Source: an uncultured Candidatus Rokubacteria bacterium (GTDB lineage: Bacteria; Methylomirabilota; Methylomirabilia; Rokubacteriales; DASRDR01). From it: a DNA stretch of 64,000 bases. The stretch lies in assembly GCA_963708025.1 (NCBI GenBank), contig CAVPSB010000016.1, positions 1-64,000 of the forward strand, read 5' to 3'. Position 1 is the first letter of the stretch; each line of letters starts with the position of its first letter. A program made the position numbers and the translations under genes. Below the pieces are notes generated by a model, which was given only the letters and a program-made list of their open reading frames with translations, ran no database searches and was not told where the DNA came from. Below are positions 60,570 through 60,781 of the stretch, one piece after another.

Positions 60570-60644
60570 AAAAAAAACGGCCGGCGTGAGCCAACGTCCG
60601 GACCCCCGGGAGGGCTGGGGGCACGAACGGCCTCACGCCGGCCG
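60570..60644 (-). terminator. Intrinsic terminator: long hairpin followed by a U-tract
   Basis: 13-bp CGGCCGGCGTGAG/CTCACGCCGGCCG stem followed by a run of about 8-9 T on the minus strand. Confidence 0.75.
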
Positions 60645-60755
60645 ATCATCGACCGGTGTCACTTCATGTTCGGCCCCGCCCCTCGGGAGGGCTGAGGGAG
60701 CGGAGGCACCGGCCGATCCCTATTCGGTTGTCATCGCGCCAGCTTCGCGCGACGC
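60570..60755 (-). ncRNA. Candidate sigma54-dependent sRNA with two AGCCCUCCC-loop hairpins
   Basis: Promoter, three stems and a poly-U run on the minus strand; no credible ORF. Confidence 0.6.
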
Positions 60756-60765
60756 TATCCGAGGG

Positions 60766-60781
60766 TGCAAGCCGGCTGCCA
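60766..60781 (-). promoter_or_regulatory. Sigma54 (-24/-12) promoter
   Basis: TGGCAGCCGGCTTGCA on the minus strand (GG-N10-GC). Confidence 0.7.

Follow-up and report, generated by a model that had tools for sequence, protein, structure and literature searches.

Small RNA (sRNA) genes that stand alone under sigma-54 control are known from Vibrio (Qrr1-5, with LuxO) and from enterobacteria (GlmY, with GlrR), where a -24/-12 promoter combined with an upstream activator site allows one signalling pathway to switch a post-transcriptional regulator, the enhancer site usually lying about 100 nt from the start. The Qrr and GlmY RNAs work through Hfq or serve as decoys for proteins. Other RNAs, among them 6C RNA of Actinobacteria and RsaE/RoxS of Firmicutes, expose C-rich loops for pairing with G-rich or Shine-Dalgarno (SD) sequences, and several of these are Hfq-free. 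In the cuckoo/alpha-r14 family (RF02344; CcsR1-4 of Rhodobacter, NfeR1 of Sinorhizobium), as described in PMC4615179 and PMC10746234, two to four hairpins each present the same ultraconserved C-rich anti-SD loop while the stems diverge with compensation, and the RNAs are thought to occlude ribosome-binding sites. The loop motif of the family, CCUCCUCCC, is defined in PMC4615179, which also names sX13 of Xanthomonas and RepG of Helicobacter as cuckoo-like; for NfeR1, PMC10746234 gives a sigma-70-type promoter and no sigma-54 signature.

Next to nothing is known of riboregulation in soil lineages that are uncultured and high in GC. Here, we analysed a locus on the minus strand of a 64-kb window (the window being the whole stretch of DNA under study) from a genome, G000, of 8.17 Mb with 71% G+C, and found what is very probably a genuine structured sRNA gene, with a promoter and an intrinsic terminator of its own and no ORF (Table 1). 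Upstream of it, the plus-strand ccm cluster comprises ccmA, ccmB, ccmE, a dsbE-type gene, a gene for a TPR protein and ccmF (58459-60459), and beyond it lie a gene for a flippase-like membrane protein (LPG_synthase_TM, 60949-61917) and then ligA, such that the sRNA gene converges on ccmF and diverges from the flippase-like gene. Of these, ccmF, the flippase-like gene and ligA are the neighbours that an earlier, sequence-only reading of this DNA had named, and the sigma-54 box, the 5' stem, hairpins 2 and 3 and the U-tract that it had described all lie where it had placed them on the minus strand.

Table 1. Positions in the window of the sRNA gene, its parts and its putative control elements
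Feature	Position	Strand	Remark
Candidate enhancer (UAS), inverted repeat TGACG-N18-CGTCA	60844..60871	-	centre about 100 nt upstream of predicted start
Sigma-54 type -24/-12 promoter TGGCAGCCGGCTTGCA	60781-60766	-	GG and GC at canonical -24/-12 spacing
Predicted transcript, ~185 nt	60570..60755	-	start (60755) placed by promoter geometry, about 12 nt 3' of the -12 GC; end at the U-tract
Small 5' stem-loop, 6-bp UCGCGC/GCGCGA	60752-60734	-	from sequence and fold
A-rich unpaired block ACAACCGAAUA	60731-60721	-	single-stranded in folds
Hairpin 2	60717-60648	-	outer stem 60717-60707 with 60658-60648
Hairpin 2 apex CCCUC-AGCCCUCCC-GAGGG, apical loop AGCCCUCCC	60693-60685	-	
Hairpin 3	60644-60578	-	outer stem 60644-60632 with 60590-60578
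Hairpin 3 apex CCCCC-AGCCCUCCC-GGGGG, identical apical loop AGCCCUCCC	60616-60608	-	
U8 tract (T8) of the intrinsic terminator	60577-60570	-	from sequence and terminator scan

The fold is reproduced by ViennaRNA with an MFE of -108.3 kcal/mol (z = -3.41), a stability equalled by none of 200 shuffled sequences, and both loops are left exposed, with unpaired probabilities of 0.91 in hairpin 2 and 0.92 in hairpin 3. In their 11-nt version the two loops read CAGCCCUCCCG. Hairpin 3 is at the same time the second C-rich-loop hairpin and the terminator stem; the terminator scan returned two sites at the locus where 0.1 were expected, and on the plus strand no T-run follows the hairpin. The A-rich block might be an additional seed, or a site for an RNase or for a protein. 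The region showed no conserved ORF: overlapping frames are not kept in the homologues, and the ATG at 60649, which opens a frame of 114 aa, is missing from them, so that the earlier statement that the locus holds no credible ORF stands. A 231-nt stretch containing the sRNA has a single match in its own genome, where no flanking repeats were seen around it; the locus is thus not a high-copy dispersed repeat, a finding that the sequence-only reading had named as one that would speak against it.

Is this RNA conserved among related bacteria? A BLAST search of 60 relatives was convincing in three of them, G006, G005 and G002, where all parts of the locus recur in unchanged order. Matches scoring under about 43 bits were short and GC-rich and were set aside (L005, which we read, looked like coding sequence), and one weak hit in the unpublished genome G055 carries no claim. 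A covariance model, R1, was built from the four sequences of G000, G002, G005 and G006, which match it by construction; across the family it found matches in only these four of 21 genomes, that is, in four of seven genera. Among 121 genomes sampled from the order it gave one extra hit, of 26 bits in G044, which we rejected as a false positive because it sits inside an HU-like coding sequence, and among 151 genomes sampled from the phylum it recovered no further full-length copy; the host phylum is small and dominated by one family. One further copy, on the metagenome contig L213, came from a search with a strict two-loop pattern; it shares the promoter, 5' stem, A-rich block, hairpins and neighbouring genes of the other loci. 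Homologues therefore occur in three other genera of the family and on one metagenome contig. A loose pattern, AGCCCTCCC-N55-82-AGCCCTCCC, matched at least 120 stretches over the genome contigs; six inspected by eye were chance matches, and none of those listed outside the four known loci united the box, the T-run and CGAATA.

The homologues in G002, G005, G006 and L213 were found where the sequence-only reading had proposed to look for them, between ccm and flippase genes: the sRNA is flanked by ccmF or a TPR ccm gene and, always in divergent orientation, by the flippase-like gene, and the copy in G005 adjoins a different ccm gene yet retains all features. In 15 of the 19 family genomes with a flippase orthologue (G001, G003 and 13 genomes of genus g5), the ccm gene abuts the flippase gene and no such RNA is present. 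This absence from the same locus means that the sRNA gene is young or often lost, and that it is not essential to the family.

The alignment of the five sequences (G000, G002, G005, G006 and L213) has a mean column identity of 77%, and conservation is concentrated in a few elements. In all five loci the promoter elements TGGCA and CTTGCA are invariant, with a variable spacer between them, and so are all positions of both 11-nt CAGCCCUCCCG loops; most of the ACAAYYGAA block is invariant as well (A56, C57, A58, A59, G62, A63, A64 and A66 in 5/5). Over the four helices, 96.3% of 190 cells pair, compared with 31.6-48.4% when the 3' partners are slid by one to three columns. Compensatory changes, on both sides of a pair, were found in 10 of the 38 pairs, and the covariation score was reached by none of 500 shuffles, figures that are indicative rather than a formal test for five related sequences. 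Hairpin 2 (helices 1 and 2) contributes six compensatory pairs out of 17 and hairpin 3 (helices 3 and 4), in which 100% of the cells pair, four out of 21. Both loops are unpaired in the MFE structure of four of the five homologues, with a mean unpaired probability near 0.9; for the first loop of the metagenome copy there is a competing pairing (probability 0.46). The 5' stem is present with differing sequence in four of five homologues and is deleted in G002, and the T-run is kept in four of five and interrupted in the metagenome copy. The claim of identical loops on compensated stems is thus borne out, and fold, promoter, terminator, covariation and synteny together support the proposal of a complete standalone sRNA gene of ~185 nt.

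We compared four RNA-labelled runs over positions 59800-61400. In each of two of them, metatranscriptomes from one study, a short contig falls entirely within the predicted transcript: one of 162 nt (60575-60736) with no differences and one of 152 nt (60576-60727) with five. Both stop in the U-tract, and they begin 19-28 nt below the predicted start. In the other two runs, X18 and X19, the sRNA was not cleanly covered; a 287-nt contig of X19 with 19 differences comes from a relative, is probably DNA and was not taken as sRNA transcript. Gaps in cover and differences in depth were given no weight as evidence. The contigs, from Logan, are strandless and no measure of relative expression, and DNA may be present in RNA libraries, so the two matches from this one study are a modest but real hint of a discrete sRNA transcript. 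Of the expectation of a minus-strand transcript, the part that the contigs bear out is that RNA-library sequence covers just the sRNA stretch; its strand is not readable from them.

Several observations at and around the locus concern neighbouring elements. Between the sRNA terminator and ccmF, at 60481-60547, lies a C/G-rich palindromic element of ~66 nt (C-runs, then GGGGGGAGGGGGG), which is separate from the sRNA and, with 382 short-BLAST hits across G000, resembles a dispersed repeat of the REP/MITE type; it draws very deep low-complexity contigs in the RNA runs, and the sequence 3' of the terminator in the homologues that we read differs from it. On the other side, a conserved block (CCGATTAGAGCAC ... 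GTCAAT on the minus strand, window 60895-60948) abuts the start codon of the flippase-like gene. This block is present in every family genome looked at, whether or not the sRNA is present, and is probably the promoter or 5' region of the flippase-like gene itself, at a very short distance to the ATG. An ISNCY-family transposase gene (51454-52530, minus strand) lies between plsX and htpX, near the ccm cluster.

Two look-alike single hairpins, not orthologous to each other, were also met. In G002, locus L146 (G002:C89:2140-2288, plus strand) consists of one long hairpin that carries the CAGCCCUCCCG loop of the sRNA and is accompanied by a T-run; it scores 32.5 bits against model R1, no sigma-54 box was seen, and no counterpart was found at the matching place in G000. 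Locus L151 in the host genome (G000:C18:89746-89815, minus strand) is a long hairpin with the apical loop CACCCCUCCCG and a T-rich tail right past an ORF stop, matches model R1 in its hairpin-3 part with 25.7 bits and is followed by the same ~66-nt dispersed repeat; this could be a sister C-rich-loop RNA or else a terminator in a 3'-UTR. The scan for C-rich loops further met a second repeated element, CTCCCTCTCCCTCCCAGGGAGAGGGT(T/G)GGGGTGAGGGT, at four places in G000 (C13:390102, C19:324537, C40:15110 and C44:139470).

The promoter of the sRNA is likely of the sigma-54 type, and an actual dependence on sigma-54 is suggested by sequence and conservation. The string TGGCA-N6-TTGCA occurs once in the window, both strands counted, against 0.02 expected. 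In addition to the conserved -24 GG and -12 GC, the features of known sigma-54 sRNA genes are matched in the host by rpoN, of which G000 has one (one Sigma54_DBD gene), and by genes for enhancer-binding proteins, the sigma-54 activator domain PF00158 (Sigma54_activat) giving 40 matches in about 30 genes. Genome-wide, G000 has 58 TGGCA-N6-TTGC(A/T) sites, many of which, in our own reading of the sites, are followed 30-70 nt on by GGAGG and a start codon. This indicates both that the TGGCA-N6-TTGCW box is a working promoter type in this genome and that its mRNAs use canonical SD sites.

Upstream of the box, an inverted repeat of the form (G/A)ACG-N18-CGT(C/T) is found at -87 to -89 from TGGCA in four of the five loci. 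In G005 it has changed symmetrically, to AACG...CGTT; the repeat of G002 differs, with TGACG-N7-CGTCA at -78. Among the 58 sites in G000, only the box of the sRNA has the full TGACG...CGTCA repeat upstream, which hints that TGACG-N18-CGTCA may be the UAS of a dedicated sigma-54 activator.

Reading these sites also turned up boxes before glnB-like and glmS-like starts, as judged by the first codons (e.g. C34:183374 and C32:191406, both minus strand); for glmS, a promoter of the sigma-54 type would be unusual. On the plus strand of the window, at 15972-16130 and 24135-24290, the identical sigma-54 box TGGCATGTGGCTTGCT appears twice, each time with a leader of ~155 nt behind it, the two leaders being ~90% identical and located upstream of a 1149-aa ORF (16261-19710) and of a 1905-aa type I polyketide synthase (24532-30249). 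We regard them as a duplication of promoter and leader, in which a regulatory RNA or a leader peptide may be encoded.

How might this RNA act? The 3' end of the 16S rRNA of G000 reads ...GGAUCACCUCCUUUCU, by which the loops CAGCCCUCCCG are mimics of the anti-SD; they carry its core, CCUCC, within CCCUCCC and should therefore pair with ribosome-binding sites of the GGGAGGG type. Hfq and CsrA were not found in G000, a genome 99.67% complete, in which the positive controls were detected. We propose that, once an enhancer-binding protein is active, probably on the TGACG-N18-CGTCA repeat about 100 nt upstream, the sigma-54 holoenzyme would start transcription near 60755. The folded RNA would consist of a small 5' stem, an A-rich linker left exposed and the two long hairpins, and hairpin 3 together with the U8 would terminate transcription. 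The twin CAGCCCUCCCG loops would then serve as redundant seeds for G-rich, SD-like sites (CGGGAGGGCUG or close to it), and their pairing at the ribosome-binding sites of mRNAs would block initiation. Hfq would be dispensable for this pairing, since the seed is G-C rich and displayed in a loop. The anti-SD-like loops, the failure to find Hfq or CsrA in G000 and the cuckoo-like repetition of the loops favour a trans-acting, Hfq-independent, translation-blocking sRNA. Taken as a whole, with an activator-dependent, sigma-54-driven RNA that pairs in trans with ribosome-binding sites, we hold this proposal to be slightly more plausible than not, its sigma-54 and activator dependence, enhancer, transcript ends and target mechanism being inferred; for the step in which the loops pair with G-rich or SD sites, the case is about evenly poised.

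The target search was a crude one, made with an exact 9-mer and without gene models. The exact complement of the 9-mer followed by a start codon occurs at 18 sites in G000, six of which look like real translation starts (a glyoxalase-family protein, Fae, an FAD oxidoreductase, a type II/IV secretion ATPase and two unknowns). In three relatives, GGGAGGGCU followed by a start codon was found 22, 19 and 29 times, a slight excess over the 19, 13 and 21 occurrences of a reversed-pattern control. None of four G000 candidates kept the site in its orthologues: the FAD oxidoreductase matches at 11 of 11 positions in G000 and in none of three orthologues, an orthologue of Fae is absent from all three genomes, the orthologue of the pilus-type ATPase has a generic SD only, and the site of the glyoxalase is not kept. 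Conversely, 10 ORFs downstream of the relatives' sites yielded three G000 homologues by tblastn, none with the site, and short strings shared by the relatives are absent from G000. Nor does any start of a neighbouring gene in the window pair well with the loop. Of the anti-SD action that had been proposed, the mimicry of the 16S anti-SD by the loops holds, but no conserved target emerged among the four candidates, and the action itself is putative.

That no specific conserved targets came up and that the loops are strictly invariant would both be in keeping with an RNA that, doubly mimicking the anti-SD, acts as a global damper and lowers the translation of all strong GGGAGGG-type mRNAs when induced and abundant. 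It would be part of a switch made of a dedicated activator, sigma-54 and an sRNA, with the logic of LuxO and Qrr, in a lineage in which Hfq and CsrA were not detected. We consider such an action improbable; if true, it would shift the ribosome pool to weak-SD or leaderless messages and amount to a switch in the mode of translation. The same two observations bear on an explanation in which the loops do not pair with mRNA but bind a dimeric RNA-binding protein, so that the RNA is a decoy or scaffold which titrates or delivers the protein, as CsrB and RsmZ do for CsrA. In its favour, the two 11-nt loops are strictly invariant and are carried by stems of like size, their identity is stricter than a degenerate SD match would need, and in addition to the missing conserved mRNA target there is an extra invariant single-stranded block. 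However, neither CsrA nor Hfq was found, the genes adjoining the sRNA encode no candidate RNA-binding protein, and the loop is a near-perfect mimic of the anti-SD; moreover, repeated identical C-rich loops are, according to PMC4615179 and PMC10746234, a hallmark of base-pairing sRNAs of the cuckoo/alpha-r14 kind. A protein decoy thus appears unlikely to us.

The loops may also pair with G-rich RNA other than ribosome-binding sites, for example the GGGGGGAGGGGGG arm of the ~66-nt repeat, which would make the sRNA a sponge or a processing guide. The repeat is present in hundreds of copies, many of them intergenic (382 short-BLAST hits), one copy lies directly downstream of the sRNA and another comes after the similar C-rich-loop hairpin on contig C18. 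On the other hand, the homologues' sequence past the terminator is unlike the repeat, and the G-arm is probably sequestered in its own hairpin, so that this pairing, a pure inference, is a long shot. Least probable of all, and to our mind very improbable, is an element acting in cis or at the DNA level, be it an antisense or terminator for ccmF, a regulatory region of the flippase-like gene or the remnant of a mobile insertion. The position between convergent and divergent genes and the insertion-like absence from the site in 15 of 19 family genomes would suit it. It is poorly compatible with the covariation, which keeps RNA pairing, with the conserved promoter and terminator that the locus has of its own, and with the short RNA-library contigs confined to the sRNA; further, a T-run after the hairpin is missing on the plus strand, the locus is single-copy with no flanking repeats seen, and the G005 copy keeps all features beside a different ccm gene. 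We therefore retain the trans-acting, Hfq-independent sRNA as the favoured reading.

In summary, the whole unit can be read from sequence: a candidate enhancer, a sigma-54 promoter, two identical seed loops and a terminator, backed by covariation and by a trace in metatranscriptomes. It thereby offers experiments an entry point to a signalling pathway and, beyond the model phyla, to anti-SD regulation that is independent of Hfq.

How does the locus compare with the described systems? Rfam 15 gave no family match for it at E values up to 10, nor for the four homologous loci and the two look-alike hairpins at E up to 1, and a scan of the whole window at gathering scores placed no family at the sRNA, in agreement with the sequence-only proposal that the RNA was probably undescribed in its lineage. 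Full-text searches of the literature outside subscription journals gave no bacterial sRNA among the matches listed for CCCUCCC with sRNA, and none from such organisms among those listed for RpoN-dependent sRNAs and for sigma-54 with C-rich anti-SD sRNAs. The sRNA is a new family, matching no catalogued RNA family; its promoter type and its seed type were already known. From 6C RNA, RsaE/RoxS, sX13 and RepG it differs in sequence, size and promoter, with no Rfam match, and to our knowledge none of these RNAs is sigma-54 driven. With Qrr and GlmY it shares the promoter type only, again with no Rfam match and with no Hfq found in G000.

The closest likeness is to the cuckoo RNAs and is one of architecture only: consecutive hairpins, two in number here, with identical loops on divergent stems. 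The loop is AGCCCUCCC in all five homologues, not CCUCCUCCC, and the RF02344 covariance model did not match, with E values allowed up to 10 at the locus and up to 1 at the homologous loci. Whereas the cuckoo family has been reported only from Alphaproteobacteria, often clustered near a conserved OG1 gene, the sRNA described here is present in one copy beside ccmF or a TPR ccm gene and the flippase-like gene, with no OG1 neighbourhood. As loop motif and model match both fail, it is an analogue and not a homologue of the cuckoo family. It changes no principle, and adds a further case in which repeated C-rich loops have arisen, independently of the cuckoo RNAs.
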